62,215 bases of DNA from a virus. Taxonomy: Duplodnaviria; Caudoviricetes. The notes beneath the pieces are model-generated. The model worked only from the letters and a program-made list of their open reading frames with translations, was not told the origin of the DNA and searched no databases. Of this stretch, positions 3,323-51,440 are shown one piece after another (within the stretch, counting starts at the first letter, position 1; the number at the start of each line of letters is the position of its first letter). Location: positions 1 through 62,215 of IMG/VR virus record IMGVR_UViG_3300044844_001006. The stretch is one strand, 5' to 3'. Position numbers and translations under genes: made by a program.

Positions 3323-6300
3323 TCAGAACATCCGCGCTGTCGTCTTCGCCAGCTTCAGGCCGGAACCGTCCCCGCGCACCCCGACCGACACGTTCCACGC
3401 TTTGCGCCTCAGCTCGGCTACTTCTTGGCTCAGGTTTCCAACCGCGAGGGCCAGATGGGCTACTGCCGGATCGGACCCACCACGCAGTACGCCAGCACCG
3501 CCGCCGAGGGCCCCGGACTCCTTCAGGCGGCTGGTGATAGCAGCAGGGATCACCGTGCCCTTGGAGGGGGGCGTCCATAGGCTGTTGGCGGGCCGGTTGA
3601 TCAGGGACAGAGCGCCAGATGCTGACAGGAACGCCTCCTGCCCCAAGCTCATCCCGCTGGGGCCGTCGTTGATGCGGTACGTCTGGCCAGCATCCACAGG
3701 GCCACCCGTGAAGCGGGCAGGGGGGAGGCCGGCGGCAGAGGCGAGGGAGAGGTAGAACCTCTCAGCAGCGTTGGCCGCATTGCCCATGTTGGTGCTAAGC
3801 CCTGCCGCCTGGCCCTTAGCTGCAGCGGTGGCTTTGGATGCCACGCCCATGAAGTCCTTGATGTCGTTCGCAGCGGGCCCCACCCCCTTACCCAGAGCCT
3901 GTCCGATCTCGTAGTAGCCCTTGCCGGTATCCCGCACCCGGAGACCCACATCCCGCGCCAACTGGGCAAAGGCGCTCTGCTGGGCAAGCGGCACCTTCAG
4001 GCTGTCACCCACGCTCTTGAACTGGTCGGCGGTGCCTTTGGCAGCCTTGAAGGTGCCATCTGCGGCGAGCTGTAGGCCCTTTGCCTCGGCGGCAGCAAGG
4101 GCCCTATAGATCGCTTCCTCGTTGGTGGCATCAGCGATCCTGCCCTGTATGGGCTGGATTTGCTGAAGGATCCCCAGGTTTTCATTGGCAATCTGCCTGT
4201 CAATATCCTTGATTTCTAGGTTTGCCTTTGCCGAGGCTTCCGCTTCTTTGTTGCTTTCGTTGATTGCTTTTGTTACCTCAAGCTCTGCTTTTTTGTACTC
4301 TGCATTTGCTTTCCTTACCTCACTGTTTGCCTCTGTAAGTGCCTGTTGCTGCTTCAATGCCAGCAGATCTCTTTCTAGTCCCTGCTGTGCTACTAATCCT
4401 TGAAACTTGGCGCTCATGGCGGCAGCTTCTATCTCTTCACCTCGGCGCTTAATTTCATCCAGCTCTCGTTCGCTTGCCTTACGCTCTTGAGCATCTTTTA
4501 GCTCAAAGTCGTTGCGGCTTTTGATGATACCAAAGCGGGAATCCTCTAGGCTGATCAATGCCTGGCCAAGATTGATGCTGGCCTGCTGTACGGAAACAAG
4601 CGAGTCGCTCTGTGCTTTGCTGAGCTTGTCCTTTGCAGCGCTAAGGGAAATTGTATTATCAACCTCAATCAGTCCTAGCCTGTTTTGCTCTTTTTGAGTA
4701 TCAAGTAAATCCTGTGCAATCTTTTTGGTGTCTCCTTTGGCCTGATTAACTTTGCCAGTGTTTTCAACCTGCTTAGTTGTCTCAATGTTTAGTATCTTAT
4801 TGAGTTCTAGAGTCTCTACCAGTCTTTGCTGAAACTCTTGGCTTGCCTTTCTGGCACCATCGTTTCCCGTGGCTCCTGCGGCACCGGAAAAAACACTAGC
4901 CCAAACCAGCTTAAGACTTTGAGAGGCTTTATCTAGTAATCCGACTTTCTGGGTGAGGTCAACAACGGCATTAGCCGTGTTAGTAATAGGTGCAACATTT
5001 ACCTGTGCCGCTTTGTTTATGGTAGGTGCAACGTCTTTGTTGAACTTCGCCGACAGATCTATGAGCTTAGCGAGCTTATCGAGATACGAGGCGACTTCGG
5101 GTAGAGACTGACCAACCGTTGTAGCTAAGTTGCTAGTTGCATTTTGAATCTTTTTAATGCCGCCTTCTATTGTGCTGGTTGCCACTTCACTTGCCTTAGC
5201 TGCAGCACCGGCACTGCTAACTTGGTTATCAAGTAGTTGGTTGTACGATTTTAGTCCATCATTCAGCAATGGCTGTACGGCAGCCTGCGCTTCAACCGAC
5301 CCGAGCAAGATAGCCAGCTTGTCAGCCGCTCCTCCTCCCTTAGCCTGTACATCTGCAAGGAAACCACCAAAGCCACGGGCCTGTAGTCCCGCTAGGTCAA
5401 AGCTAATTCCCAGGCTCGCCGCTAGGTCTTTTGCCTGCTCGCTTGGCTTGAGGATCGAGCTAATCGCCTGACGGATCCCGGTAAATGATTGAGCTACCGG
5501 GACTCCTTTCAAGGTTGCTGTAGCAATGGCAGCATTCAACTCCGAGATCGGAATACCAGCGGCAGCAGCAACAGATGCCACCGTGCCGATCTGCTCGGCA
5601 TACTCCCGAACCGTGATAACACCGTCGGCTTGGGTTTGCACAAAGCCGTCTACGATGCTCGTAGCATCAGCCGTGGTTAGCCCGTATGCGTTGATAACTC
5701 CGGTAACGGCCTTAGTTACGTCGTTCAGCTCGGCGAAGCCACCTGATGCCCCCAGTGATGAAGCCCTAAGGATGTCCGTGATCTGTGCAGTAGTCGTAAA
5801 GCCGCTGGAAGCAACATCATAGGAGGCCTTTAATAGCTCAACTCGGCTTACATTGCTATCAAGCTCAATCGAAAGGTCGAACAGTTTATCCTTAAGATCA
5901 CTTGAGTTGATACCTAGCGTCCTTACTGCCGCTCCCGCTGAATCAAGCTCTGTAATTTGCTTGCCGACAAACTGAAGCGCTGAGCCAGCCGAGAGAACGG
6001 CCCCAGCCTGCAGGGCAAAGCCCTTAAGCTCTTGCCCTAATCCCTTGATGATGCCGCCGCCGCCACCTAACGCTTTGTCTACTTCCTTTTGTGTTTGCGC
6101 TATCTGCCTTTGAGCCGCAACGAACTCTTTTGATCCGATGGCGGCTTTGTTCAGGGTTTGATCTAGCTCACTAAGCCTGGTCTTGAGACCCCCCAGTGTA
6201 GTGACGCTTGAACCAACGCCCTTATCCAGCTCTTTTAGTTGCCCGCGCAGCCGCTCCAGCAGCTTGTCGTTGGCGGCAAAGCCCTGTTGAAACTCCTGCC

Positions 6301-6394
6301 CCGCCTGCTTCCCCGCCTGCCCGATCTGCCGCGAGGCATCGAGCACACCCTTTACATCGGCGGTGACTTTAACGACCCACTCGTTGCCTGCCAT
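3323..6394 (-). CDS. Tail tape measure protein (TP901-like core)
   Basis: 1023 aa, Ala/Gly/Gln-rich and helical, with core motifs such as ASYDVASSGF, EYAEQIGTVASVAAAAGI, ISSILKPSEQA and a C-terminal RFTGGPVDAGQTYRIN motif. Confidence 0.92.
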   Translation of the reverse strand: MAGNEWVVKVTADVKGVLDASRQIGQAGKQAGQEFQQGFAANDKLLERLRGQLKELDKGVGSSVTTLGGLKTRLSELDQTLNKAAIGSKEFVAAQRQIAQTQKEVDKALGGGGGIIKGLGQELKGFALQAGAVLSAGSALQFVGKQITELDSAGAAVRTLGINSSDLKDKLFDLSIELDSNVSRVELLKASYDVASSGFTTTAQITDILRASSLGASGGFAELNDVTKAVTGVINAYGLTTADATSIVDGFVQTQADGVITVREYAEQIGTVASVAAAAGIPISELNAAIATATLKGVPVAQSFTGIRQAISSILKPSEQAKDLAASLGISFDLAGLQARGFGGFLADVQAKGGGAADKLAILLGSVEAQAAVQPLLNDGLKSYNQLLDNQVSSAGAAAKASEVATSTIEGGIKKIQNATSNLATTVGQSLPEVASYLDKLAKLIDLSAKFNKDVAPTINKAAQVNVAPITNTANAVVDLTQKVGLLDKASQSLKLVWASVFSGAAGATGNDGARKASQEFQQRLVETLELNKILNIETTKQVENTGKVNQAKGDTKKIAQDLLDTQKEQNRLGLIEVDNTISLSAAKDKLSKAQSDSLVSVQQASINLGQALISLEDSRFGIIKSRNDFELKDAQERKASERELDEIKRRGEEIEAAAMSAKFQGLVAQQGLERDLLALKQQQALTEANSEVRKANAEYKKAELEVTKAINESNKEAEASAKANLEIKDIDRQIANENLGILQQIQPIQGRIADATNEEAIYRALAAAEAKGLQLAADGTFKAAKGTADQFKSVGDSLKVPLAQQSAFAQLARDVGLRVRDTGKGYYEIGQALGKGVGPAANDIKDFMGVASKATAAAKGQAAGLSTNMGNAANAAERFYLSLASAAGLPPARFTGGPVDAGQTYRINDGPSGMSLGQEAFLSASGALSLINRPANSLWTPPSKGTVIPAAITSRLKESGALGGGAGVLRGGSDPAVAHLALAVGNLSQEVAELRRKAWNVSVGVRGDGSGLKLAKTTARMF

Positions 6395-6395
6395 G

Positions 6396-7100
6396 TCAGC
6401 TCTCCGGTGTCACGACGTACTGGGTGGGGTTGGTCCAGCTGATGGCGTACTGATCCAGCACCCCGAGCCCCTGCCCCGGCGCATCACCGCCGATCGGCAC
6501 CGCACGGCACCCCGGCAAGAGGCTGATGATCCGCTGCGTCAACGCCTGCAGGGCCGTCAGATCAACTGCGGGTGAAGGCACCACCACACCAGCAGCCACG
6601 GCAGCCGAGGCGATGGTGCTGCCAGCTAGGGCATAGCTGAGGGTGAACGGTGCGGTCGTAGTCGCAGCGGTGACCGTGAAGGTGCCATTCAGGGCAGCGA
6701 AGGGGGCAGGGAGAGCGCTCACCGCTACCTGCTTGCCCACGCCGAAGCCATGGGCCGCCGCGAAGGTGAGCGTGGCCGTGCCTGATGCAAGGGCGGCATT
6801 GGTAATCGCCTGCGGGGCCACCTGCAGGGCAGACCACTCGCTCACGTACAGCCGGAACTGTGGGTTCAGACCCGTCTCCCCGGTAAGCATCGCCTCGGGG
6901 CTGTAGTCGGGGTTGTTGAGGATCACCACCTCCAGGCCAGCCACGGCCACCCCCTCGGGCAACTGCTCATTGCGGCGCACCACGGCGATGGCAGGGATTG
7001 CCGTACCGCCCCGTGGGGTGTAGCTGCCCAACGCGGGGGCCACTACGGCATCAGTCGCCAGCAGGTCGTACAGCTCCTGTGCAGTGGCGGGAAGGCTCAT
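6396..7100 (-). CDS. Putative tail terminator/completion protein with an inserted beta-rich domain
   Basis: 234 aa, immediately upstream of the tape measure gene. Its internal ATLTFAAAHG...NGTFTVTA domain is shared with 10601-11434 and 56864-57553. Confidence 0.55.
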   Translation of the reverse strand: MSLPATAQELYDLLATDAVVAPALGSYTPRGGTAIPAIAVVRRNEQLPEGVAVAGLEVVILNNPDYSPEAMLTGETGLNPQFRLYVSEWSALQVAPQAITNAALASGTATLTFAAAHGFGVGKQVAVSALPAPFAALNGTFTVTAATTTAPFTLSYALAGSTIASAAVAAGVVVPSPAVDLTALQALTQRIISLLPGCRAVPIGGDAPGQGLGVLDQYAISWTNPTQYVVTPES

Positions 7101-7149
7101 GCCTCAGCTTTCCCTGCAAGTGGGCCGATCTGGGAGCCGGGTGGCGTTG

Positions 7150-7190
7150 CGCTTCCCAAACGGCTTACAGATGGGGTAGTATTGAAAAGT
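7150..7190 (+). promoter_or_regulatory. Candidate promoter/operator for repeat-RAMP locus A
   Basis: TAGTAT -10-like hexamer just before the first repeat tract. It is preceded by an ACGGCTTA motif also found upstream of locus B. Confidence 0.45.
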
Positions 7191-7193
7191 CAG

Positions 7194-7525
7194 TGCATCG
7201 CCGCGCTCTGCCCCGCATCGCGACGCCGCGCCTCGCTCCGCATTGGGGCCCTTCGGGGCCCACAACTCACCACTGAGCCATTTGGCTTTCTGGTGGGCTG
7301 ACGCCTACCACGCCGCCACCCGGCGCATCGCTAAGCGAAGCCTCGCCTCGCGCAGCCTTGCAACGGCCCCGGCTTCGGCTGGGGCACAACCCATCACAGA
7401 GCTTCATGTTCTCTGGTGGGCTGATAGCTCACCACTCCGCATTGCTGCGCAGATCGCCGTGCAGCGCCGCTGCGCCTCGCCTAGCGAAGCCACGCAAACC
7501 GCAGGGGCCTTGTTATCAGGGCCCA
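7194..7525 (+). ncRNA. Array A-left: three units of (Y/A)GC-NN pentamer tracts separated by conserved hairpins (candidate guide RNAs)
   Basis: Tracts at 7194-7243 (10 pentamers), 7309-7363 (11) and 7433-7502 (14). Each is followed by a GC-rich hairpin, and units 2 and 3 are preceded by a hairpin ending CTGGTGGGCTGA. Confidence 0.8.
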
Positions 7526-7552
7526 CTCAACCATCCTAAGAGGATTCAATCA

Positions 7553-8182
7553 ATGGCATTTCGCCGCTTTGAGCTAACGCTTGAGGGCACACGCCCGCTC
7601 ATTTGCAGTAACCCCTGCACAGTTGATCCACTAGGCCCCCACGCCGAAGCGATCAAGTATTTCACCGGCCTCAAAAAGAACCGCAATGAACACGCCCTGA
7701 GGCGGCTGCATTGGTTGTTCTCCGGCTACTGGGGAACCGAAGGCACATTCACCTACGGGCCCAGCTTGGATGGTGATTCCAAGTTTAGTGGCTTTGCTGA
7801 GCCATTCCTGCCTGCTCAGAACCTGCAGCGTTGCATCCGCGATGGTGCCACGGCGTGGAAGCTGGGCAAGGACACCAAGCGGGCAATCGTTGTCGAGGGT
7901 GATGCACCGCTCGCTTACGACGGCCCCACCGATGCCGAGCTGATGTACGACGACCCGCGCTTTGCCTCAATCGCTCCCACAGGAAGGGGCACCATGGCAG
8001 TGCGGGTAAGGCTGCCCCAGTGGAGCGCTACCTACCGGCTCCTGGTGAATGACGAGATCATTGATCCCACCACGCTGGCAAAGATCCTAGATCGTGCTGG
8101 CATTGCCGAAGGCCTCGGCACCTGGCGCCCCATGCACGGTCGCTTTCAGGTAGTACAGCTCGAAGAGATTGAGGTGGCCTGA
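7553..8182 (+). CDS. RAMP/Cas7-like protein A (209 aa)
   Basis: N-terminal strand FELTLEGTRPLI, central FLPAQNLQRCIRDGA and C-terminal glycine-rich loop GIAEGLGTWRPMHGRFQV match RAMP-superfamily motif order. ATG 7553 follows an AAGAGG Shine-Dalgarno-like site. Confidence 0.72.
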   Translation: MAFRRFELTLEGTRPLICSNPCTVDPLGPHAEAIKYFTGLKKNRNEHALRRLHWLFSGYWGTEGTFTYGPSLDGDSKFSGFAEPFLPAQNLQRCIRDGATAWKLGKDTKRAIVVEGDAPLAYDGPTDAELMYDDPRFASIAPTGRGTMAVRVRLPQWSATYRLLVNDEIIDPTTLAKILDRAGIAEGLGTWRPMHGRFQVVQLEEIEVA

Positions 8183-8697
8183 TGAATGACCCCAAGATTG
8201 CCTCAATCGACGCTTACCACCTTTACAAGGGCCAGACCATTTCGGCCGATGTTGTGTGGGAGCACTTCGCAAATCGGCGACCCGACACCGTGGCCAGTTG
8301 GGTCATGGAGCACGGGGACGAGGCGCTGGCTAGGGCTGCTCGAATGCCTCAGGTTCTGCTTCAGGTTCGTGGCTGGCTTGACCGTGATCGCAGCAAAGCG
8401 GAGCTTCCGCCGCTGGTGATGAACACGGCAGGTGGCGGCATCAACGTGCTCACCGATGACAAGGCCTCAACCTACCTGAACGATCAGGCGTTCCAAGGGT
8501 TGCGCCGCCATCAGCGGGCATCCACTCGGCTTGTTGCCGCCGTAGATGAATCCAAGCTGACCGGTGCCGCACGTCGAGAGCATCAGAACCGGATCAACGT
8601 GCATAGCTTCATTGCTGCATCCGCTCAGGGCGCCCAGCGCCAGCTCAGGCTCCTGAGGCAGAACGGGAAGAAGGCACCGAAGCTGGAGGGGGGCTGA
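8182..8697 (+). CDS. Hypothetical protein, accessory gene of locus A
   Basis: 171 aa, TGATG-coupled to the RAMP-like gene and enclosed by the arrays. Confidence 0.8.
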   Translation: MNDPKIASIDAYHLYKGQTISADVVWEHFANRRPDTVASWVMEHGDEALARAARMPQVLLQVRGWLDRDRSKAELPPLVMNTAGGGINVLTDDKASTYLNDQAFQGLRRHQRASTRLVAAVDESKLTGAARREHQNRINVHSFIAASAQGAQRQLRLLRQNGKKAPKLEGG

Positions 8698-8855
8698 TGT
8701 GGGATCCAGCTGATTTGATCTTGCGACTTCTTGGCGGGGAGTCCCTTAGCCGCAGGCAAAAGGCGTGCATTCGGCAGCACTTGCAGCGTGTTGTCGGCCG
8801 TTTTTCACCCAGCGAATCCGCAGCAGCGGAAGCGCTGGGCCTGGCGGACATCTAA
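8697..8855 (+). CDS. Small hypothetical protein (52 aa, MWDPADLILRLLGGE...)
   Basis: TGATG-coupled to the previous gene and hand translated. Confidence 0.5.
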   Translation: MWDPADLILRLLGGESLSRRQKACIRQHLQRVVGRFSPSESAAAEALGLADI

Positions 8856-8887
8856 TGACCTGGGCATCCGCAAGGTGTAAGCCCTAG

Positions 8888-9222
8888 AACTGCGCCGCTC
8901 GCTACGTCGCCTTTCACCGCCGCCCCGCTCTACGCGCCGCACCGCACAGGGGGTCTCATGCGAGGCCCCACACCTCACCGCTAAGCCCCCTGGCTCTCCG
9001 GTGGGCTGACGCCTACCACGACGCGACACCACCCAGCGCCGCTCGACGCAACGCAACGCGCCGCACCGCACAGGGGGCCCAGTAATGGGCCTCACACCTC
9101 ACCGCTGAGCCATTGGTTCTCCGGTGGGCTGATGCCTACCACTGCTCCCTGCGCCGCGTTGCAAAACAGCGCTCCGCTTCGCATCGCACCGCACCGCACA
9201 GGGGCCCCTTTTTGGGGCCCAC
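8888..9222 (+). ncRNA. Array A-right: three units of CNC/YGC-NN pentamer tracts with the same hairpin scaffold
   Basis: Tracts at 8888-8947, 9017-9071 and 9140-9199 all end CGCAC CGCAC AGGGG plus a hairpin. The linker CACACCTCACCGCTRAGCC...CTCCGGTGGGCTGAYGCCTACCAC is repeated. Confidence 0.82.
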
Positions 9223-9254
9223 CCCAATCATTCACAGACACCCCCGAACACACC

Positions 9255-9566
9255 ATGAAAACCTTCTCAGTTACATTCAGCCTTACTCTTGATGTTACCT
9301 GCGCAGATCATTTAGATACTGATTGGGTAGCAAAGCAATTCGCCTACAAAAGTGATAGGTTTTCTACCCTTTGTATTGCAGGCGATCCTGAGGGCGAGAT
9401 TGCAATACAGGCTGCATCATCCGGCATAGAGAGTATTCGAAGGTATGATAGCCCAAAGGTATCGGCGACTCCCAAATCCGAGGCTCCCGCATTTCCTGCC
9501 CGTACCGGAAACCGCATTACTGACATGCTTTCTAATCCAGCCATTAGAAAGATGATTGGGTACTAG
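9255..9566 (+). CDS. Hypothetical protein (MKTFSVTFSLTLDV...)
   Basis: ATG after a C/A-rich leader. AT-richer than the genome average. Confidence 0.65.
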   Translation: MKTFSVTFSLTLDVTCADHLDTDWVAKQFAYKSDRFSTLCIAGDPEGEIAIQAASSGIESIRRYDSPKVSATPKSEAPAFPARTGNRITDMLSNPAIRKMIGY

Positions 9567-9625
9567 TAGCCTCTCCCAGTCCACCCAATCCCCATCCCCT
9601 ACTTACCATTATTGAGGATTTAGCT

Positions 9626-9988
9626 TTGGCTCACTACTGTGCTCCAGGTTTTCAGTTTGATGGAAAAGGATTTAGCCCAACGAATACACCGCCAAGCGTC
9701 AAGGCTGTGTGTGAAGGGTTGTTTGCACTTGGCTCGGGCGTCACTTTGGCAGGAGAAAAGCGTCTGGCTTTTCTTGCTGCATTGCATCAAGCCATACAAG
9801 AAAAACACATTGATCTTTCAGATCCTAACCCTGTCGCTGGCATTGAATGGGAAACCTTAGTCCCTGGTGCTGAATGGGAAGCCTTAGTCGACACGGGCGA
9901 AGGAACAATCAAGGTCACAGTAGAATGGCGGGTATCTATTGCCCCGCTACCTGAGGCGTCTGATGCGCTGGGTCTGCTCCCCAGTTGA
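9626..9988 (+). CDS. Hypothetical protein
   Basis: 120-aa ORF, TTG start preceded by GAGG. Confidence 0.5.
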   Translation: MAHYCAPGFQFDGKGFSPTNTPPSVKAVCEGLFALGSGVTLAGEKRLAFLAALHQAIQEKHIDLSDPNPVAGIEWETLVPGAEWEALVDTGEGTIKVTVEWRVSIAPLPEASDALGLLPS

Positions 9989-10021
9989 CCCGGAAACCTG
10001 CCGCAACACTGCCAGCCCGCC

Positions 10022-10255
10022 ATGGAAGCCCCAGTCATGGAAGCCCGCTCCTGCCCACGCTGCGGCGCCCGATGGCTAGGCGAGCAGCTTTACTGGGCCA
10101 CCGGCAAGAAGGCCTCAGAGCTTGATCTGGCGGGCCTCGTCTGCAACATGGTCAACGATCCGGTCTGCATCAACCCACTTAAAGGCCATGAAGGTGGCGA
10201 CACCTGGGCCAAGCGCATGGAGCGGGTCAGTCAGCCGCTTAGTGCTGAGGCATAA
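10022..10255 (+). CDS. Small Cys-containing hypothetical protein
   Basis: CPRCGARW...LYWATGK...DLAGLVCN. Preceded by a GGAAACCT motif. Confidence 0.7.
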   Translation: MEAPVMEARSCPRCGARWLGEQLYWATGKKASELDLAGLVCNMVNDPVCINPLKGHEGGDTWAKRMERVSQPLSAEA

Positions 10256-10600: not shown

Positions 10601-11434
10601 TCAGAGCAGATCGAGGCCGACCTTGCCGTAACCGGCCAGGCTCACCTGGAACTTGATCACCGTGCCAGCAGTCTGCTCAGGCTGGTAGCTCTCAAAGAAG
10701 CCATAGCCGTACTCCACCTGCTTCCCGTTGTTCGGGCCGATGACGGCGTACTCAACCATCAGCTTCTCGCTCACGTTGAACTCTTCACAGATCCGCATGG
10801 CACGCCACGCAGGGTCGGCGAAGTTCATCGCCCCGCTGATGCTCCAGGTCTTGTCCCTGGCGGTAGGAATCGGGGTGTTGTAGCTGCCCGCCTCGTCGTC
10901 GTAGGTGGTGACCGATTCCTTGGTGGTGCTGTTGCTGGGCTGGATATTGGTCAGACCCAGCAGGCGGAACGGGGGGTCGGTGCCGTCGAGCAGGAGTGAG
11001 GGGGCCACCACACCAGCAGATACGGAAGCAGTGGTGATCGCCGAGCCGGTCAGGGCATAGGTCAGGGTGTGCGGCGATGTGGTTGTAACCGCCGTCACCA
11101 CGAACGAACCGTTGATGGTGGCGAACGGAGCAGGAAGATCCTTCACCACGATCCGCTTGCCCACCGTGATGCCATGGGCATCAGCAAAGGTCAGGGTTGC
11201 GGTGGTGGTGGTACTGACCGCATTGGTAACCGCCTTGGTGCCGACACCGAATGCAAAGGTATCGCCGGTTCCAGCCGTGATGATCTGGGCGGTGGAGCTT
11301 TGCAGGGTGGTGTTGTCGATGAACTTGCCGGTGCCAAGCCCGCCGAGGTTGACGCGGGTAAGGTCAACCGCTGAAGCCTTGAGAGGGGTGAAGAAAAACT
11401 TGAACCCGTAGGCCTGTTCCCACACTTGGGGCAT
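10601..11434 (-). CDS. Major tail tube protein with an inserted beta domain
   Basis: ESVTTYDDEAG...KTWSISG...GYGFFESY...IKFQVSLAGYG fits a tail-tube pattern. Neighbours the tail chaperone. Confidence 0.75.
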   Translation of the reverse strand: MPQVWEQAYGFKFFFTPLKASAVDLTRVNLGGLGTGKFIDNTTLQSSTAQIITAGTGDTFAFGVGTKAVTNAVSTTTTATLTFADAHGITVGKRIVVKDLPAPFATINGSFVVTAVTTTSPHTLTYALTGSAITTASVSAGVVAPSLLLDGTDPPFRLLGLTNIQPSNSTTKESVTTYDDEAGSYNTPIPTARDKTWSISGAMNFADPAWRAMRICEEFNVSEKLMVEYAVIGPNNGKQVEYGYGFFESYQPEQTAGTVIKFQVSLAGYGKVGLDLL

Positions 11435-12877: not shown

Positions 12878-13033
12878 GGTGCTGCGGTTGTGTTTTCTCA
12901 GCTTGCCGTTGTGGCTTAGGGAACCGCAATGGCTTATGATGTGGGGGCTGGGGGTTGCGCTGGCGTGGGCGAGCGTCTGACGCTACGACCGCTGCTCTTC
13001 CCCCGGCACCCATTCACCACCGACCGACCGACC

Positions 13034-13543
13034 ATGACCGACTTCCGCGCCGAACTGGATAAGACAAGAGGAGCCGAGGCGAGCGTTGAGCAAGTAGCTC
13101 AGATCGTCTACGAAAATGCCATGCTTGCAACTGCACCCGATCACGCCAAGCCGCATTGGCCAAGCTGGGCTGACCTTCCCAATTCAGATGCTCGCATCCA
13201 CGCGCTGAACACGGCTGAGATTATCCTCACCCGCTGGGGCCGCCCTGCAGCACCCGCGCCGAAGCCCATCCCGGTGAGTGAGCGGCTGCCGGAGGATGCC
13301 GACTGCCTGGTTATCCCGCCACTCGGGACAAGCACTTTCCCTCTCCGCTACTGCTGGCAGGCCAGTGAGATCATGCACTGTGGCCAAGCGCTACTGATCT
13401 GGGATTGGAAGCTGGTGCCGCACACGACAGATAAGCACTGGCCTTTCACGTACTGGCTGCCAGCGTCAACTCGATTCCTGCCGACGACGGTAGATCCTGC
13501 CAAAACCAACTCAGTAGCCGATCCCAACGAGGCTGAGGCATGA
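13034..13543 (+). CDS. Hypothetical protein with a DUF551-like module
   Basis: PIPVSERLP...TYWLP motifs. ATG after an ACC-rich leader. Confidence 0.65.
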   Translation: MTDFRAELDKTRGAEASVEQVAQIVYENAMLATAPDHAKPHWPSWADLPNSDARIHALNTAEIILTRWGRPAAPAPKPIPVSERLPEDADCLVIPPLGTSTFPLRYCWQASEIMHCGQALLIWDWKLVPHTTDKHWPFTYWLPASTRFLPTTVDPAKTNSVADPNEAEA

Positions 13544-14067
13544 GCACAGACTTCCGCGCCGCAGAAGGTGAGCAGTGGCTGCCGGTGCCTGGCTATGAAG
13601 GCTGCTACTCAGTCTCTTCACTGGGCAATGTCCGCAGCGAAAAACGAACAGTGCCTAACGGGCCCTCTCGTTATCGAGTCCTGGATCAAAGGATTTTGAA
13701 GCAATGGAAAAGCTCAGATGGGCACATGAGTGTAGAACTCTGTAAACAAAGCAAAACACAACGTTTTGTGGTTGGCAGGCTTGTTGCACATGCATTTTTC
13801 GGTCCCCCTCCTGCAGGGAAATATGTTCTTTATGGTCCTTTAGGCAAGGGCTGCAATGCTATTACAAACTTGTTTTATGGCACTTTGAGTAGAAATGACG
13901 CTTTAATGGCTGCCAACGGCACATTGATCCAGCCTGAACTTAGAGACAGCCGTACGCCGATAACGCTTCTACGGGTTGGGGCCTCTTGCGGTGGCGGTGC
14001 TCATCTTACTTCCGATGAGTGTCATTGCATCCTTACCTTGCTCGCCACACCCTTAGTCAACCCTTAA
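13540..14067 (+). CDS. NUMOD4-domain protein with a degenerate HNH region
   Basis: EQWLPVPGYEGCYSVSSLGNVRS is a NUMOD4 motif. The HNH region appears to lack the catalytic His (VLYGPLGKGCNAITNLFY). Confidence 0.75.
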   Translation: MSTDFRAAEGEQWLPVPGYEGCYSVSSLGNVRSEKRTVPNGPSRYRVLDQRILKQWKSSDGHMSVELCKQSKTQRFVVGRLVAHAFFGPPPAGKYVLYGPLGKGCNAITNLFYGTLSRNDALMAANGTLIQPELRDSRTPITLLRVGASCGGGAHLTSDECHCILTLLATPLVNP

Positions 14068-14116
14068 GACCCGCCACCGCCACCTGACTCACACCACCAC
14101 CGACACCAAGACACCA

Positions 14117-14563
14117 ATGAAACCAAGACTGATAGGCAGGATTGACAACTTTCAACATCCGCAGCGCAACTGGGAGGAGATGGTTGAAGTTGGTCAAGTT
14201 GAATCATACATAACCTCTTTGGATGAATGGGACTTCCCCGCCCTTGCAAGACTTGCAAATGCCGCCGGATACGTCCCGTGTCAGACAGGTAGATATGCTT
14301 CGGTCACCTTTCTACCTTGCAACGGCAGCATAAAATGGCACACGGACCCAGGAAGCGGCGTAAACGTTGCTTGTCTTGTCGGCAACGGCGGCAGTATCTA
14401 CCCATTGCCAGAGTTGATCACAAAGCATGGAGCGCTTGAGGTTAGCCTAGGTGACGTGTTTGTTTTTAACACTAACCTAGGTCACGCATGGCTATCACAT
14501 GATTTATGCGTACTAGCCAGCATCACGGTGAAGAGAAGGCGCAGTTCAAAGGGCTTAACCTAA
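14117..14563 (+). CDS. Putative 2OG-Fe(II) oxygenase/cupin-fold protein
   Basis: HxD motif (WHTD) and a distal His (GDVFVFNTNLGHAW). Confidence 0.55.
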   Translation: MKPRLIGRIDNFQHPQRNWEEMVEVGQVESYITSLDEWDFPALARLANAAGYVPCQTGRYASVTFLPCNGSIKWHTDPGSGVNVACLVGNGGSIYPLPELITKHGALEVSLGDVFVFNTNLGHAWLSHDLCVLASITVKRRRSSKGLT

Positions 14564-31316: not shown

Positions 31317-31909
31317 CGATTAGCCTCCTCACGCAGCAGCAGCGAGCAAGCGTGTTGGCCCTGCAGATCAAACCACGCGGCCACCTCGCGAATCGCGGCG
31401 CGGGCAGTCCCATCCCCGTAATGCCCAAGCACGTTCGCTACCCGCTCCACCAACCCCCCAACAGGCGCGGCCGGTGGTGCGGGCTGGGGGATTGGGGGCT
31501 GGGCGGCGCCGTGCTGGCGGCCGAGGTTGTAGACGGCGCGTAAAGCTGGAACGAGGCCGTCAACTTCATGCCATAGATCAATCAATTCGTCATCCGTAAC
31601 TACCGGGGCGACCTCGGGGGTGGGCTGAGCAGCCAGCTCAACGGTGCCGGGGATCGGGCGCTGCTCCAGGGCCATGATCCGCTTCAAGTGATCGTCACTC
31701 CAGCGCATCAACTTGTCCACGTCCTTGCCCCATTCGAGGGTGGCCAGCCGCTGGGTTTCGTATTTCTTCTCAAGTGCCTCCAGCCGCTCCAGCAGATGCA
31801 GCAACACTTGAGCGGTGACGCCGCCATCAAGCCTGGCGGTCTGGCGCAGCCAAGCCAGGGTTTCGGGGGGAAGTGGTCGGAGAGCGGTCTCGGGCGGAGT
31901 GTTGCTCAC
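31313..31909 (-). CDS. Hypothetical protein
   Basis: 198 aa, overlap-coupled, with a C-terminal ARAAIREVAAW module. Confidence 0.65.
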   Translation of the reverse strand: MSNTPPETALRPLPPETLAWLRQTARLDGGVTAQVLLHLLERLEALEKKYETQRLATLEWGKDVDKLMRWSDDHLKRIMALEQRPIPGTVELAAQPTPEVAPVVTDDELIDLWHEVDGLVPALRAVYNLGRQHGAAQPPIPQPAPPAAPVGGLVERVANVLGHYGDGTARAAIREVAAWFDLQGQHACSLLLREEANR

Positions 31910-37969: not shown

Positions 37970-38617
37970 ATGGCAGCCACCACCAAGACCAAAACCCAAG
38001 CCCCCGAGGAGGCCATCAGCATCAAGGCGCCGGATTTCCGGTTCCTGGAGATCAACATCCGAGGCACCAGCCCCCTCGTGGTCAACCGCTTCTCGGCGAA
38101 AGCCATCGAGATGATGCGGGCCACGCAGGAGGCAGGTAGCGCCGCTAAGTCCAAAAAGACGCGGGAGCCGAAAGATTTCGATGCCCTGTTTGAGAACGCC
38201 AAACACGTCTCAAACGACGGCTGGGAAGGGATCCATGCTGCCGCCTTCCGCAATGGCGCCATCAGTGCCTGCAGGGCTGTTGGCTACAAGATGACCCACG
38301 CAAAGCTGGCGTTTTGCGTGCTGGCCGATGGCTTCGACCGCGTAGACGGTGCCCCGCTGGTGCGCATTTCCGAGGGAGAGGCTGAGCAGTGGGTGGCCCC
38401 AACCCGGAACGCTACAGGTGTAGTCGATCTGCGCTGCCGTCCGATGTACCGGGAATGGGCTGCCGTGTTGCGGATCCGTTACGACGCGGGGATGCTCAGC
38501 TCCAGCGATGTGGTGAACCTGATCAGCCGCGTAGGGCTCCAGGTCGGCATCGGCGAGGGGCGACCCGATAGCAAAGCCAGTGCAGGACTTGGGTTTGGCC
38601 TTTTTGAGATCACCTGA
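37970..38617 (+). CDS. RAMP/Cas7-like protein B (215 aa)
   Basis: LEINIRGTSPLVV, GIHAAAFRNGAISA, DLRCRPMYREW and glycine-rich loop GLQVGIGEGRP...GLGFGLFEI. Same motif layout as 7553-8182. Confidence 0.75.
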   Translation: MAATTKTKTQAPEEAISIKAPDFRFLEINIRGTSPLVVNRFSAKAIEMMRATQEAGSAAKSKKTREPKDFDALFENAKHVSNDGWEGIHAAAFRNGAISACRAVGYKMTHAKLAFCVLADGFDRVDGAPLVRISEGEAEQWVAPTRNATGVVDLRCRPMYREWAAVLRIRYDAGMLSSSDVVNLISRVGLQVGIGEGRPDSKASAGLGFGLFEIT

Positions 38618-38769
38618 TGAAAGACCCAACCGCCAATCAATTCGCCATAACTCTGCTGTTACTCCTGACAGCGTGGGCCGTGTGCTTCCTGTGGTTCAAT
38701 CCAACCGGCTGGACAGTTGCGTTTGTGCTGGTCGCTGTTGCATTTCGAGTGGCCCCACGGTTTTTATGA
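38617..38769 (+). CDS. Small two-helix membrane protein (50 aa)
   Basis: TGATG-coupled. MKDPTANQFAITLLLLLTAWAVCFLWFNPTGWTVAFVLVAVAFRVAPRFL, hand translated. Confidence 0.6.
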   Translation: MKDPTANQFAITLLLLLTAWAVCFLWFNPTGWTVAFVLVAVAFRVAPRFL

Positions 38770-39535
38770 CGCAGGCATGGCAGGCATGGTGCGGAAGGCG
38801 TGGCCGCGACTCGCAAGTGTTGGCGCGGCAGGCATGGCCCGGTCAGGTCGGAACGGCCAAGCCGGGAGGGCGTGGCAGGACAGGCATAGCAGGCATGGCT
38901 TCGGAAGGCACGGCCAGGCCAGCCCTGGCAGGCAAGGTGTGGCCACGGTGGAAGATCAGGCGCGGCTGGCTAGGTGTGGTCGGGCTAGAGCAAGGCACGG
39001 CTGGCAAGGCCTCCTGGGCACGAGCACGCGGGGCATGGCAGGCGAGGTAATGAGGGCATGGCTGGGTCTGGTGTGGCAGGGTGCTGCAGGCATGGCTAGG
39101 TGCGGAAGACAGGCTCGGCAGGCACGGCAGGCAAGGCGACGATGGGCCTGGAAGGCACGGCCAAGCAAGGCAGGCGTGGTAGCGACGGCAGGATCAGGCA
39201 TGGATTGGCAGGCACGGCGTGGCGAGATCAGGAGCGATCGAGGAACGGCAAGGGACGGCAGGCATGGCTGGCTAGGTGAGATCTGGCGTTACTTGGGCTG
39301 GCGAGGTGAGACGCGGCAGGCATGGCACGGTCTGGATGGGTAGGGACTGGCAGGCCTGGTAGGCAAGGCCTGGTGGTGTACGTCGTCGCAGGCACGGCGA
39401 GGGAGGCCCGGTGAGCATGGCGGGGCGAGGCGCCGCAGGCCTGGCTTGACGGCGTAAGGCACCGCACGATGCGGCTCGGCTGGCGTGTTGCGGTTGCCAA
39501 ATGGCAGCAGAATAGGGGTCCGAATGGGCCCCCCT
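38770..39535 (+). ncRNA. Array B: ~730 bp of GGY-NN pentamer repeats punctuated by GGCA/GGCT tetramers (candidate guide RNA array)
   Basis: For example GGCAT GGCTG GGTCT GGTGT GGCAG GGTGC. Recurrent GCAGGCATGG boundaries, ending in a GGGGTCC-GAAT-GGGCCCC hairpin. Confidence 0.82.
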
Positions 39536-39556
39536 CATTCACTATCCCCTGATGAC

Positions 39557-40123
39557 ATGAACGACTGGGACTTGATCAAGGCTGAACCTGAATACGTCTT
39601 CCGAATCGAAGATGGCGAGGAAGTGATGGGCATTGATGCCCAGACCGCTGGCAGCGAGCTAGACCGCATCAGGCGGCGTGATGGCACGATCCGCCCTGCT
39701 GCGGTGGTGGACGAGGCCAGGCCCGAGGAGGCTCCCTTGCATCCGGCGTTTGAGTGGCGCGATCCGGTGGCCGCTGAACAGTGGCGCGAGCATCAGGCCA
39801 CCACCCTAATCAAGGTGGTGCGGGTGGTGCCTGCTGCTCCAGTAGCGCCCCGCGTAGCATCGGTGCGGCCGGTGATGCAGGCGGCAGCACCGGTGGTCGA
39901 GCGCTATGACCCGATGGCTAAGGAGGTACTGGAGGCCGTGGGCCTAGTGGTGGAGGCTCGCCGCAAGGTTGAGGAGCTGAAACTACGCACCCAGCGCATG
40001 GGTGATCGCAAGTCGATGGCGGTGCTGGGAGTCGCCTTCGGGATGCTGGACGAGGCCCATGAAGCGTTGACTAACTGTCAGGTCAGCAGCACATGGGAGC
40101 GTCAACTGCAGCAGGCCCGGTGA
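39557..40123 (+). CDS. Hypothetical protein, accessory gene of locus B
   Basis: 188 aa, with GSELDRI...PAAVVDEARPEEAPLHPAFEWRDPVAAEQWR...ATTLI. Confidence 0.8.
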   Translation: MNDWDLIKAEPEYVFRIEDGEEVMGIDAQTAGSELDRIRRRDGTIRPAAVVDEARPEEAPLHPAFEWRDPVAAEQWREHQATTLIKVVRVVPAAPVAPRVASVRPVMQAAAPVVERYDPMAKEVLEAVGLVVEARRKVEELKLRTQRMGDRKSMAVLGVAFGMLDEAHEALTNCQVSSTWERQLQQAR

Positions 40124-49993: not shown

Positions 49994-50188
49994 ATGACAA
50001 TGAACGACTGGCAACCGATTGAAACCGCGCCGAAGGACGGAACCGAAATTTTGACGTGGGACGGCAACGAGCATCAGATCCTGTGGTGGTTAGATGCTGT
50101 CGGATGGGTTGGCGATGATGACTTTCTGGATAAATTGCCCACCTACTGGCAGCCGCTGCCGGAGCCTCCAGCCTTACTCACCTCCTAG
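49994..50188 (+). CDS. DUF551-like protein
   Basis: WQPIETAPKDGTEIL...PTYWQPLPEPP. Confidence 0.8.
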   Translation: MTMNDWQPIETAPKDGTEILTWDGNEHQILWWLDAVGWVGDDDFLDKLPTYWQPLPEPPALLTS

Positions 50189-51178
50189 CGCCCGCTCCGC
50201 CGCTTCGGCAACCTGCCAAGGCTGAATGTGAGCGCGGTAGGTCCGGGAGTGCTGGCCTGGGGTGTGACCCATCAAGCGAGCAGCGGTGTAGATGTCAAGC
50301 CTGCTGCCGCCCTCTCGCCACAGTCTCCCGCCATAGGCGTGGCGAAGGGAGTAAGGGCGCCACGGCAGCCCCTGCCGCCGCAACTCCTTATTGAGCCACT
50401 TGCTCACCGCCTCGGGGCGATCGGCGCTGCCCTCCAGCCGCAGCCGCAACCGCCGATCCCGCAACCCGAACCGCTCCACCCACTCGCGGGGCAGGGGCAC
50501 CACCGTGCGAAACCCGGTCTTGGTGCCATCCGCCACCTGGCACAGATCGCGCTCGATCAGCGTCGCCCCTTCGATCTCATGCGGCCTGAGCCCGTAGGTG
50601 GCCATCAACCCCCAATACCAGCGCACCGGATTGGGCGCCCCCTCCACCCACTCGATGATCTCGGCATCGGTCGGCACCGCCACCAACTCCGCTTGGCTGT
50701 AGGTGGGCAGTGGCACCTCTGGGAACGGCACCGCTACCAACCGCGACAGGTGCCGCAGGAGGTAGTACAGCTCCTTGTAGCTGCAGGTGGCCCGGTCGTA
50801 CCGCTCCAGGGCCTTGGCCATGCTGGCGGTCGTGCAGGCGCCCCCCTGTGGAACCTGCCGCAGGCGCCCGAGATAGTTCACCTGCCAGGTGCTCTCGCCC
50901 GTGCGCCCCAGCACCACCCGAGCCCGGTAGAGCTTGGCAATGGCCTCGCGCCAGGTGATCGCTCCCGAGGCCTGATCCAGCCAGTACCCCCACTCAAACG
51001 TCCCCGTGCTGAGCTGCCGCTCCAGTGTCTGGAGCTGCTTCAAGGCGGTGCGGCGGTTGATCGGCGTGTCGTCAAGCTTCAGGGCGATGCGGGACTGTTG
51101 CAGCCCTGGGGCCCCGTCACGCCTAGGCAGCCTGGCCAGCAGGTAGAGCCGCCCACGCTGGGTGTTGATCGAGGCCAT
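50174..51178 (-). CDS. int: Tyrosine integrase (cyanobacterial phage type)
   Basis: Catalytic set in YGLRPHE, TKTG, YSLRHAY, MGH and HSRTY. N terminus RGRLYLLARLP. Confidence 0.92.
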   Translation of the reverse strand: MASINTQRGRLYLLARLPRRDGAPGLQQSRIALKLDDTPINRRTALKQLQTLERQLSTGTFEWGYWLDQASGAITWREAIAKLYRARVVLGRTGESTWQVNYLGRLRQVPQGGACTTASMAKALERYDRATCSYKELYYLLRHLSRLVAVPFPEVPLPTYSQAELVAVPTDAEIIEWVEGAPNPVRWYWGLMATYGLRPHEIEGATLIERDLCQVADGTKTGFRTVVPLPREWVERFGLRDRRLRLRLEGSADRPEAVSKWLNKELRRQGLPWRPYSLRHAYGGRLWREGGSRLDIYTAARLMGHTPGQHSRTYRAHIQPWQVAEAAERALGGE

Positions 51179-51179
51179 G

Positions 51180-51440
51180 GGGAATACGACGCGGCGAAAA
51201 AGCAGAGCTGCACCCGACGCACGGGCCGTGCATAAACTACGCTCTGCCAGTCCCTTCCTGTCCCTTGCTGTCACCTAAGGCAGCACCACTGCACCCGGTT
51301 AGATCGCCCTCAGTGCCTGCACTTTGCCTTAAACGGCAGGCCAGAACCGCAAGATACAAATCCTCGTCGATTTCGCGGATATCGTATTCCCTACCCAGTC
51401 ACCGCAAGGTTTTTCGGCGGTGGTGCATAAGCTGCCCATC
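51180..51440. other. Candidate attP region
   Basis: Non-coding gap beside int, with inverted GGGAATACGA copies (51180 and about 51382) and direct GTGCATAA copies (about 51228 and 51423). Confidence 0.4.

Follow-up and report, generated by a model that had tools for sequence, protein, structure and literature searches.

A guide tract in a phage VIPR locus matches a sibling-phage allele of the tail-module gene beside its own cassette

Systems of the type termed Viral Interference Programmable Repeat (VIPR) were described in a 2026 preprint (bioRxiv 10.64898/2026.04.26.720920). According to that preprint, the effector, Vipr, is a RAMP protein, and its guides (vrRNAs) consist of GGY/NN repeats followed by a 3' tail. 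The variable NN pairs read double-stranded DNA with one base skipped, mostly the wobble base of a codon, and the outcome is repression. Natural targets were called there at an NN match of at least 80%, and no self matches that high were reported; alternative repeat forms, YNNNG among them, are mentioned, and type II systems are represented by those of SUSP1, a phage of Escherichia, and of a prophage in Pseudomonas fulva. Types I–VII are assigned from the Vipr phylogeny, the vap family and the array architecture, and 664–667 systems have been catalogued. In a structural preprint (10.64898/2026.04.26.720927), the resolution of protomers and the unwinding of the DNA start at the 3' tail and proceed towards the 5' end. 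Another preprint (10.64898/2026.10.15.759431) shows that guides aimed at the VIPR loci of relatives score lower on self. Here we analyze a locus of this kind in IMG/VR record IMGVR_UViG_3300044844_001006, a whole virus record of 62,215 bp (61% G+C; Caudoviricetes) that we refer to in its entirety as the window and that probably belongs to a temperate freshwater tailed phage. (The labels “freshwater” and “lake water” on public runs were noted only and given no evidential use, and stretches left uncovered in runs X3, X4 and X20 are uninformative.) The locus is a plus-strand cassette, VIPR-1, spanning 7140–9250. The first nine variable pairs of one of its six repeat tracts, A2, spell codons 7–15 of the tail-module gene that flanks the cassette, in the AQGIYDLLA allele found in sibling phages. 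We estimate a probability of roughly 80% that A2 directs Vipr to the start of this gene in siblings with that allele and spares the phage that encodes it. The kind of system is already known; the position of the target, directly beside the cassette, is the unusual detail.

Does the cassette conform to the described VIPR systems? Judged from its predicted genes and repeats, it does. It comprises tracts A1–A3, a 209-aa gene, a 171-aa gene, a 52-aa open reading frame (ORF), tracts B1–B3 and small genes; as in SUSP1 and P. fulva, a two-gene core is thus flanked by arrays on the same strand. The 209-aa gene, vipr1 (7553–8182, plus strand), encodes a RAMP/Cas7-like protein in phrog_4652 (E = 2.7e-26) that is homologous to PDB entry 36pp, “SUSP1 Vipr protein” (phmmer, E = 1.4e-11, two segments, residues 7–205). 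It is 27% identical to a Felix-like Vipr and has relatives in Felixounavirus, Gordonia phages and mycobacteriophages; the homologues in Felixounavirus wV8 and mycobacteriophage LittleE adjoin GGT/NN and GGC/NN pentamer tracts. An AF2 model of Vipr1 (pLDDT 87.8) had 55 PDB fold matches at E ≤ 0.001, with Cmr4, Csm3 and Csf2 as the top folds. Among the matches listed, it resembles subunits of type III, IV and VII CRISPR effectors (Csm3, Cmr-beta, Csf), and its best Foldseek matches, Cas7-family proteins, have a probability of 1.00 (E of 7e-6 to 7e-4, 7–12% sequence identity). Vipr1 is a small single-RRM RAMP protein homologous to the described Vipr proteins and is therefore a member of that group.

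The repeats likewise resemble those of SUSP1 and P. fulva: tandem pentamers (9–16) that combine a constant trinucleotide with a variable NN pair and end in a structured 3' part. A vrRNA needs at least four tandem units; each of the six tracts has 11–14, all kept in one 5-nt phase. The third letter of the pentamer is C in every unit except one, and the second is mostly G. The resulting consensus, xGC/NN, matches the YNNNG form and differs from the GGY/NN of the SUSP1 and P. fulva systems. Among sibling carriers the NN pairs vary while the scaffold is retained. After each tract a GC-rich hairpin of 7–8 bp is predicted, with a stem sequence of its own in every unit, so that by prediction all six have a structured 3' tail; the A2 unit folds with z = -3.5, and its tail begins with an 8-bp GC-rich hairpin (7366–7385, plus strand) directly 3' of the tract. 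A second hairpin, CCCATCAC...GGTGGG, lies between internal units (7387–7424, plus strand, in the case of A2) and is absent after A3 and B3. In these predictions, which covered simple hairpins, the 3' part amounts to one or two of them; the 3' part of SUSP1 contains a pseudoknot.

The Cas7-like fold also invites comparison with class 1 CRISPR systems. Vipr1 shares the fold of their Cas7 backbone (Csm3, Cmr4, Csf2) and, by analogy, may share a guide-RNA filament with periodic disruption of pairing. The period differs, however: 5 nt with two read bases here, as opposed to 6 nt with five read in Cas7 guides. The repeats that we found are vrRNA units, and neither an array with contiguous spacers nor a set of other cas genes was seen; scans of ten neighboring genes against Pfam and PHROG returned no Cas family, and no reverse transcriptase was present among the genes scanned.

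A2 occupies 7309–7363 on the plus strand and comprises 11 xxC/NN pentamers in one phase (cacGC cgcCA cccGG cgcAT cgcTA agcGA agcCT cgcCT cgcGC agcCT tgcAA). On the other side of the cassette boundary lies a 234-aa tail-module gene (6396–7100, minus strand), which starts MSLPATAQELYDLLATD and has a tail-tube-like gene on one side and the tape measure gene on the other. Its codons 7–17 (AQELYDLLATD; 7082–7050, minus strand) read GC CA GA CT TA GA CT CT GC AC GA when every third base is ignored. The first-pass annotation of this DNA had pointed out that these pairs nearly match A2, with 16/18 bases identical over the first nine pairs and 17/22 overall; we reproduced both counts, with mismatches confined to pairs 3, 4, 10 and 11. 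Since 7100 minus 7082 is 18, the match is in codon phase, and the unread base is the wobble position. The site begins 18 nt inside the gene and lies 227 bp from the tract, slightly closer than the approximately 250 bp given originally.

Within the phage's own genome this match is of borderline significance and, with six tracts tried, not significant alone, as the annotation had itself cautioned. When both strands of the window were scanned with the A2 pattern of read pairs and skipped bases (NNx), the site at 7051–7082 (minus) was the single top match at 17/22, followed by scores of 16, 15 and 15. A score of at least 17/22 was nonetheless reached somewhere by 75 of 1000 shuffles of A2's pair order (P = 0.075; the genome scan was run for all six tracts) and by 6.6% of 1000 artificial tracts composed of eleven pairs each, sampled from all 71 pairs pooled. 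The significance of the match comes from sibling alleles, not from the own-genome score.

The annotation's first proposal was that A2 is really aimed at a sibling phage's ortholog of this gene, with a sequence like AQGIYDLLA, and sibling alleles support this almost to the letter over the core of the tract. Orthologs of the 234-aa gene were gathered from IMG/VR. The 95 candidate stretches included 78 that encode a relative; these represent 77 distinct loci, 70 of them with a readable N-terminus. Fifteen of these 70 loci carry AQGIYDLLA, read as GC CA GG AT TA GA CT CT GC, and match the nine-pair core of A2 at 18/18 positions. Over all eleven pairs this allele scores 19/22 (86%), again in codon phase. 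Most of the remaining readable orthologs have the EL form, as the window does, and score 16/18 on the core. The two alleles, hereafter GI and EL, differ exactly at pairs 3 and 4 (GG/AT vs. GA/CT).

A search that started from the tract rather than from the gene led to the same place. The exact nine-pair pattern was sought in 2.9 million IMG/VR contigs and found at 15 sites, all 15 at codons 7–15 of an ortholog; the genes concerned all start M[ST]L[PS]. The unrelated background in this collection is about one match per such pattern: the EL-allele pattern had 36 matches (35 orthologs and one unrelated), and the corresponding A1 pattern, used as a control, had none. In 596 Gb of prokaryote genomes the A2 pattern had seven matches, all unrelated, and in a metagenome collection it had 45, of which seven are orthologs and 38 unrelated. 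The unrelated matches include about 18 copies of a repeat family of 40–47% G+C that matches A2 at 20–21 of 22 positions; we rejected it as a chance resemblance on account of its composition, an in-frame stop and the size of the collection. The family's members (L123–L163) are metagenome contigs of one assembly.

Shuffled tracts and altered reading rules were used to gauge the sibling match. In six whole sibling genomes (357 kb), none of 300 A2 shuffles reached 19/22. In 824 kb of sibling DNA, the probability that a shuffle scored at least 19/22 was 0.005, and none of 2000 shuffles reached 18/18 over nine pairs. When the real A2 was read against the same 824 kb with skips of zero or two bases, its best scores were only 16/22 and 14/18; only the published one-base-skip rule yields the match. 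Parsing of the eight VIPR-1 carriers yielded 24 tract strings, several of which overlap or are shortened versions of one tract; among these, A2 alone reaches 85%. On the GI allele, then, A2 shows the features by which natural VIPR targets are called: a 1-nt skip, an NN match of at least 80% and wobble alignment.

By analogy with the described systems, one Vipr1 protomer per pentamer would hide the constant xGC and present the two variable bases, which would pair with double-stranded DNA and skip every third target base. Filament formation, DNA binding with a one-base skip and a block of transcription are all carried over from the preprints. In siblings with the GI allele, whether superinfecting, co-infecting or co-resident as prophages, the A2 complex would occupy the start of the 234-aa gene and block transcription into that gene and onward into the tape measure and distal tail genes, while the phage's own operon would be spared. 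If the cassette were expressed from the prophage, siblings could be excluded without tail proteins being supplied in trans; this possibility is raised because the late genes are encoded on the other strand from the cassette and an integrase-like gene (50174–51274) is present in the genome.

For A2, the self/non-self pattern is that expected from the preprint threshold of at least 80% NN match for natural targets: the A2 self site scores 17/22 (77%), below the threshold, and the GI allele 86%. Tract B2, by contrast, has an own-genome site above the threshold (see below). In this, A2 resembles the SUSP1-family solo and VIPR+ vrRNAs, which target a close relative in wobble alignment with a non-self identity above 0.8 and a self identity below 0.8. 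As in the SUSP1 and P. fulva systems, the skipped base is aligned to the wobble position and the targets would lie in competing phages. Unlike the SUSP1-family vrRNAs, whose targets are vipr, vrRNA and satellite recombinase loci, A2 matches a structural gene of the tail module that flanks its own cassette, and discrimination here rests on a two-codon allele, EL vs. GI.

At this site the cassette occurs in eight genomes, namely the window, G001 (= L005), L043, L047, L053, L055, L056 and L075; among them A2 is present in the window only. G001 is the sole VIPR-1 carrier with the GI allele; it has two A-units and no A2, which fits self-avoidance. In IMG/VR, searches with 3-base-spaced patterns found no other vrRNA with the A2 guide and none with a guide against the EL allele. 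In other public runs, three contigs contain the A2 core; one is identical, and two have CC in place of CT at pair 10. One of the latter, a 157-nt contig covering 7245–7379, comes from an RNA-library run.

Several points weigh against the interpretation that A2 targets siblings. It was the self near-match that prompted the collection of orthologs in the first place, and the patterns used included the N-terminal peptide of the window's own gene, which inflates the EL counts. Pairs 10 and 11 of A2 (CT AA) fit no allele, matching at one of four bases, and such 3' mismatches might matter because, in the structural preprint, protomers resolve and DNA unwinds from the 3' tail. Pentamers 9–11 (..gc, ..ct, ..aa before a CGGCCCC hairpin) recur, however, in L053/L056, where a tract that is otherwise unrelated ends in a hairpin of this type, and pair 10 varies (CT to CC) in other samples; they are probably constant scaffold and not guide; a scaffold role would explain why pairs 10 and 11 match no allele. 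The RNA-library contig is no proof of transcription, as DNA can occur in such libraries, and the vrRNA and its complex are predictions. Two mismatches might not fully protect self in an xGC-type system. The carrier's own proteins could complement, in trans, the silenced structural gene of a co-infecting sibling. Finally, the other five tracts have no convincing target.

Could the match instead be the product of a GC-rich periodic tract meeting a GC-rich coding sequence? The own-genome statistics would allow it, with P of about 0.07 per tract and six tracts available, as would the 38 of 45 core matches in the metagenome collection that are unrelated. Tract B2 supplies a further parallel. Its top own-genome match (39773–39804, plus strand; AEQWREHQATT, in codon phase within an ORF at 39485–40123) is, at 18/22 (82%), above the 80% threshold, with a shuffle P of 0.004–0.027. 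Yet 28 ortholog loci of that site score 14–17, none above self, and the matching pairs include the AC AC with which each of the three B tracts ends; the B2 pattern with up to three mismatches was absent from five sibling genomes. The B2 match is probably due to chance. A2 behaves differently: with a shuffle count of zero in 2000, all 15 IMG/VR matches at one homologous site, a background there of about one unrelated match per pattern and a requirement for the one-base skip, chance becomes a scarcely credible explanation.

Another possibility is that the imperfect self site is the real target, A2 tuning the phage's own tail operon while the sibling fit is incidental. The self site is A2's top own-genome match, is in phase and lies at the 5' end of the gene preceding the tape measure gene, all of which would suit a regulatory role. 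On the other hand, it scores 77%, and the published systems showed no self matches at 80%; the complete 18/18 core match is confined to another allele; and a regulator would be expected in other carriers, yet A2 occurs in one of eight genomes. We consider self-regulation very improbable.

The position of the target also recalls the free-standing homing endonucleases of T-even phages, which are responsible for intronless homing and marker exclusion. They resemble the present locus in that an insert is specific for a rival's allele of the adjacent gene, to which the carrier's own allele is resistant by virtue of a few changes; they differ in that this cassette has no recognizable nuclease gene and that recognition would be RNA-guided. 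A homing-like or poison-antidote drive could thus be envisaged in which A2 marks the cassette-free or GI allele beside the insertion point. Binding, with or without an unrecognized nuclease, would stall or break the rival genome, and repair from the carrier would copy in both the cassette and the resistant EL allele; alternatively, the tight linkage (227 bp) merely keeps the guide with the immune allele. Several observations accord with a drive: the target lies 18 nt inside the gene, cassette-free siblings share just about 20 nt upstream of its ATG, the self allele differs at read bases, and the island is a hotspot with different inserts. Others do not. No nuclease is recognizable in the cassette, and the vap-like protein yields a helical model with no fold match at E ≤ 0.001; the characterized type II VIPR systems repress and do not cut; seven other carriers at the same site lack A2. 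Nor do the data show that cassette-free relatives fit A2 better than carriers, which the annotation had proposed to test. GI codons are present in 14 of 59 loci without VIPR-1, one of seven carriers and one of four loci assigned to neither group (these counts span 16 loci, one of which reads GIF and fits A2 at only 15/18), and we counted the allele as not rarer in carriers. On balance, we find a drive distinctly unlikely, although less so than self-regulation. The annotation's related proposal, that the self site has eroded and serves in regulation or homing-like spread, is possible on these data but not required: the self site stands at 77%, under the threshold, and the cassette is without a recognizable nuclease.

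A version of the linkage idea goes with the reading that A2 targets GI siblings. Separated by 227 bp at the edge of the cassette, A2 and the EL allele that resists it could constitute a linked poison-antidote pair. The guide would disable rivals with the GI allele, and the cassette and its flanking allele would spread together among siblings, because recombination would almost never separate the guide from the immune allele. This is speculative, and we judge it unlikely, albeit less so than a homing-like drive. If it were true, homing or marker exclusion would have a counterpart that is RNA-guided and needs no nuclease, and the choice of a target in the neighboring gene would be a general principle in the design of vrRNAs against relatives.

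What does the sibling match add to the study of VIPR? It lends computational support to the one-base-skip code: the target is a natural one, and the clade is distant from the E. coli and Pseudomonas models and has a different repeat consensus. It offers a clean natural case of self/non-self discrimination in a structural gene, by two read bases, and points to a rivalry between siblings over the allele of a tail gene that directly flanks the cassette. The allele pair in IMG/VR (GI in 15 contigs, EL in 35) is a ready-made substrate for measuring mismatch tolerance and would allow a test of whether linkage between the guide and the immune allele drives the spread of the cassette.

The remaining tracts all lie on the plus strand. 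A1 (7189–7243, 11 pentamers) is nearly identical in L043, L047, L055 and L075, and A3 (7433–7502) has 14 pentamers, two of them degenerate; no target was found for either. Array B consists of B1 (8888–8947, 12 pentamers), B2 (9017–9071, 11 pentamers) and B3 (9140–9199, 12 pentamers). B3 matches the sibling G005 at 31649–31683 in 19/24 positions (79%; shuffle P of about 0.02).

The 171-aa gene (8182–8697, plus strand), the candidate accessory gene of the cassette (vap-like), has a start that overlaps the vipr1 stop. It is kept in five of seven sibling carrier loci, the other two being incomplete, and has at least 181 database relatives. Its protein matched no Pfam or PHROG family and nothing in a sequence search of the PDB, and it resembles neither the second gene of the Felix-like wV8 locus nor that of the LittleE locus. 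Across the genes at 7553–10255, Pfam (at its cutoffs) and PHROG searches, together with the model of the 171-aa protein, gave no nuclease family or fold; the only PHROG match was phrog_4652, a family of unknown function. The 52-aa ORF (8697–8855, plus strand), between the accessory gene and array B, is absent in G001 and skipped (158–185 nt) in contigs of two other runs; this stretch is an indel within the cassette.

Other readings of the cassette DNA were considered and set aside. An ORF at 7243–7539 was rejected as a coding gene: its conserved “WWAD” corresponds to the inter-unit hairpin, and the units are spaced 123–124 nt apart. G-quadruplex and diversity-generating-retroelement-like readings were dropped once the VIPR papers accounted for the 5-nt code. 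Rfam searches gave no family at gathering scores over the whole window and, at E ≤ 5 over 7100–9300, two noise matches only and no hammerhead; no tRNA or tmRNA was found. A blastn search of 7100–9300 against phage records returned no match. A promoter scan of 6950–9350 found no sites, and a TAGTAT hexamer noted by eye (7177–7182) is unsupported.

The cassette occupies an insertion hotspot between the tail-tube/p90 genes and the 234-aa gene (window 9252–10255; L006 600–2270), which in siblings contains a 77-aa gene alone, VIPR-1 or other genes. In cassette-free siblings such as L015, the opposite-strand 77-aa gene (phrog_484) abuts the 234-aa gene with a 53-nt gap. The sequence that these siblings share with the window upstream of the ATG extends for only about 20 nt, which places the target about 40–75 nt from the cassette boundary. 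L006 has the window's N-terminal allele and, instead of VIPR, a gene for a 295-aa protein with a DGQHR motif, which we take to be a candidate ParB/DndB-like signature. The tape measure gene (PF10145) lies at 3323–6394 and the tail-tube-like gene (277 aa) at 10601–11434.

Elsewhere in the window, a second VIPR-like locus (37970–39540) encodes a 215-aa phrog_4652 homologue (E = 2.9e-16) with a weak match to PDB 36pp (E = 0.034). After the gene come about 700 nt of G-rich sequence with a GGC/GGT periodicity, which often changes phase and contains a recurring GCAGGCATGG motif; the ORF that contains the B2 match directly follows this array. Related arrays are present in the siblings G001, G002, G003 and G004. 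A further plus-strand island (12929–14563), distinct from that of the VIPR cassette, interrupts the minus-strand structural region and contains an HNH endonuclease gene (13540–14067; phrog_1492, E = 2.5e-32). The 234-aa gene (at 6560–6790) and the 277-aa tail-tube-like gene (at 11080–11290) have in common a domain of about 70 aa, ATLTFA.AHG..VGK...V..LPAPFA..NG.F.VTA.TT..P.TL.YAL.GS.

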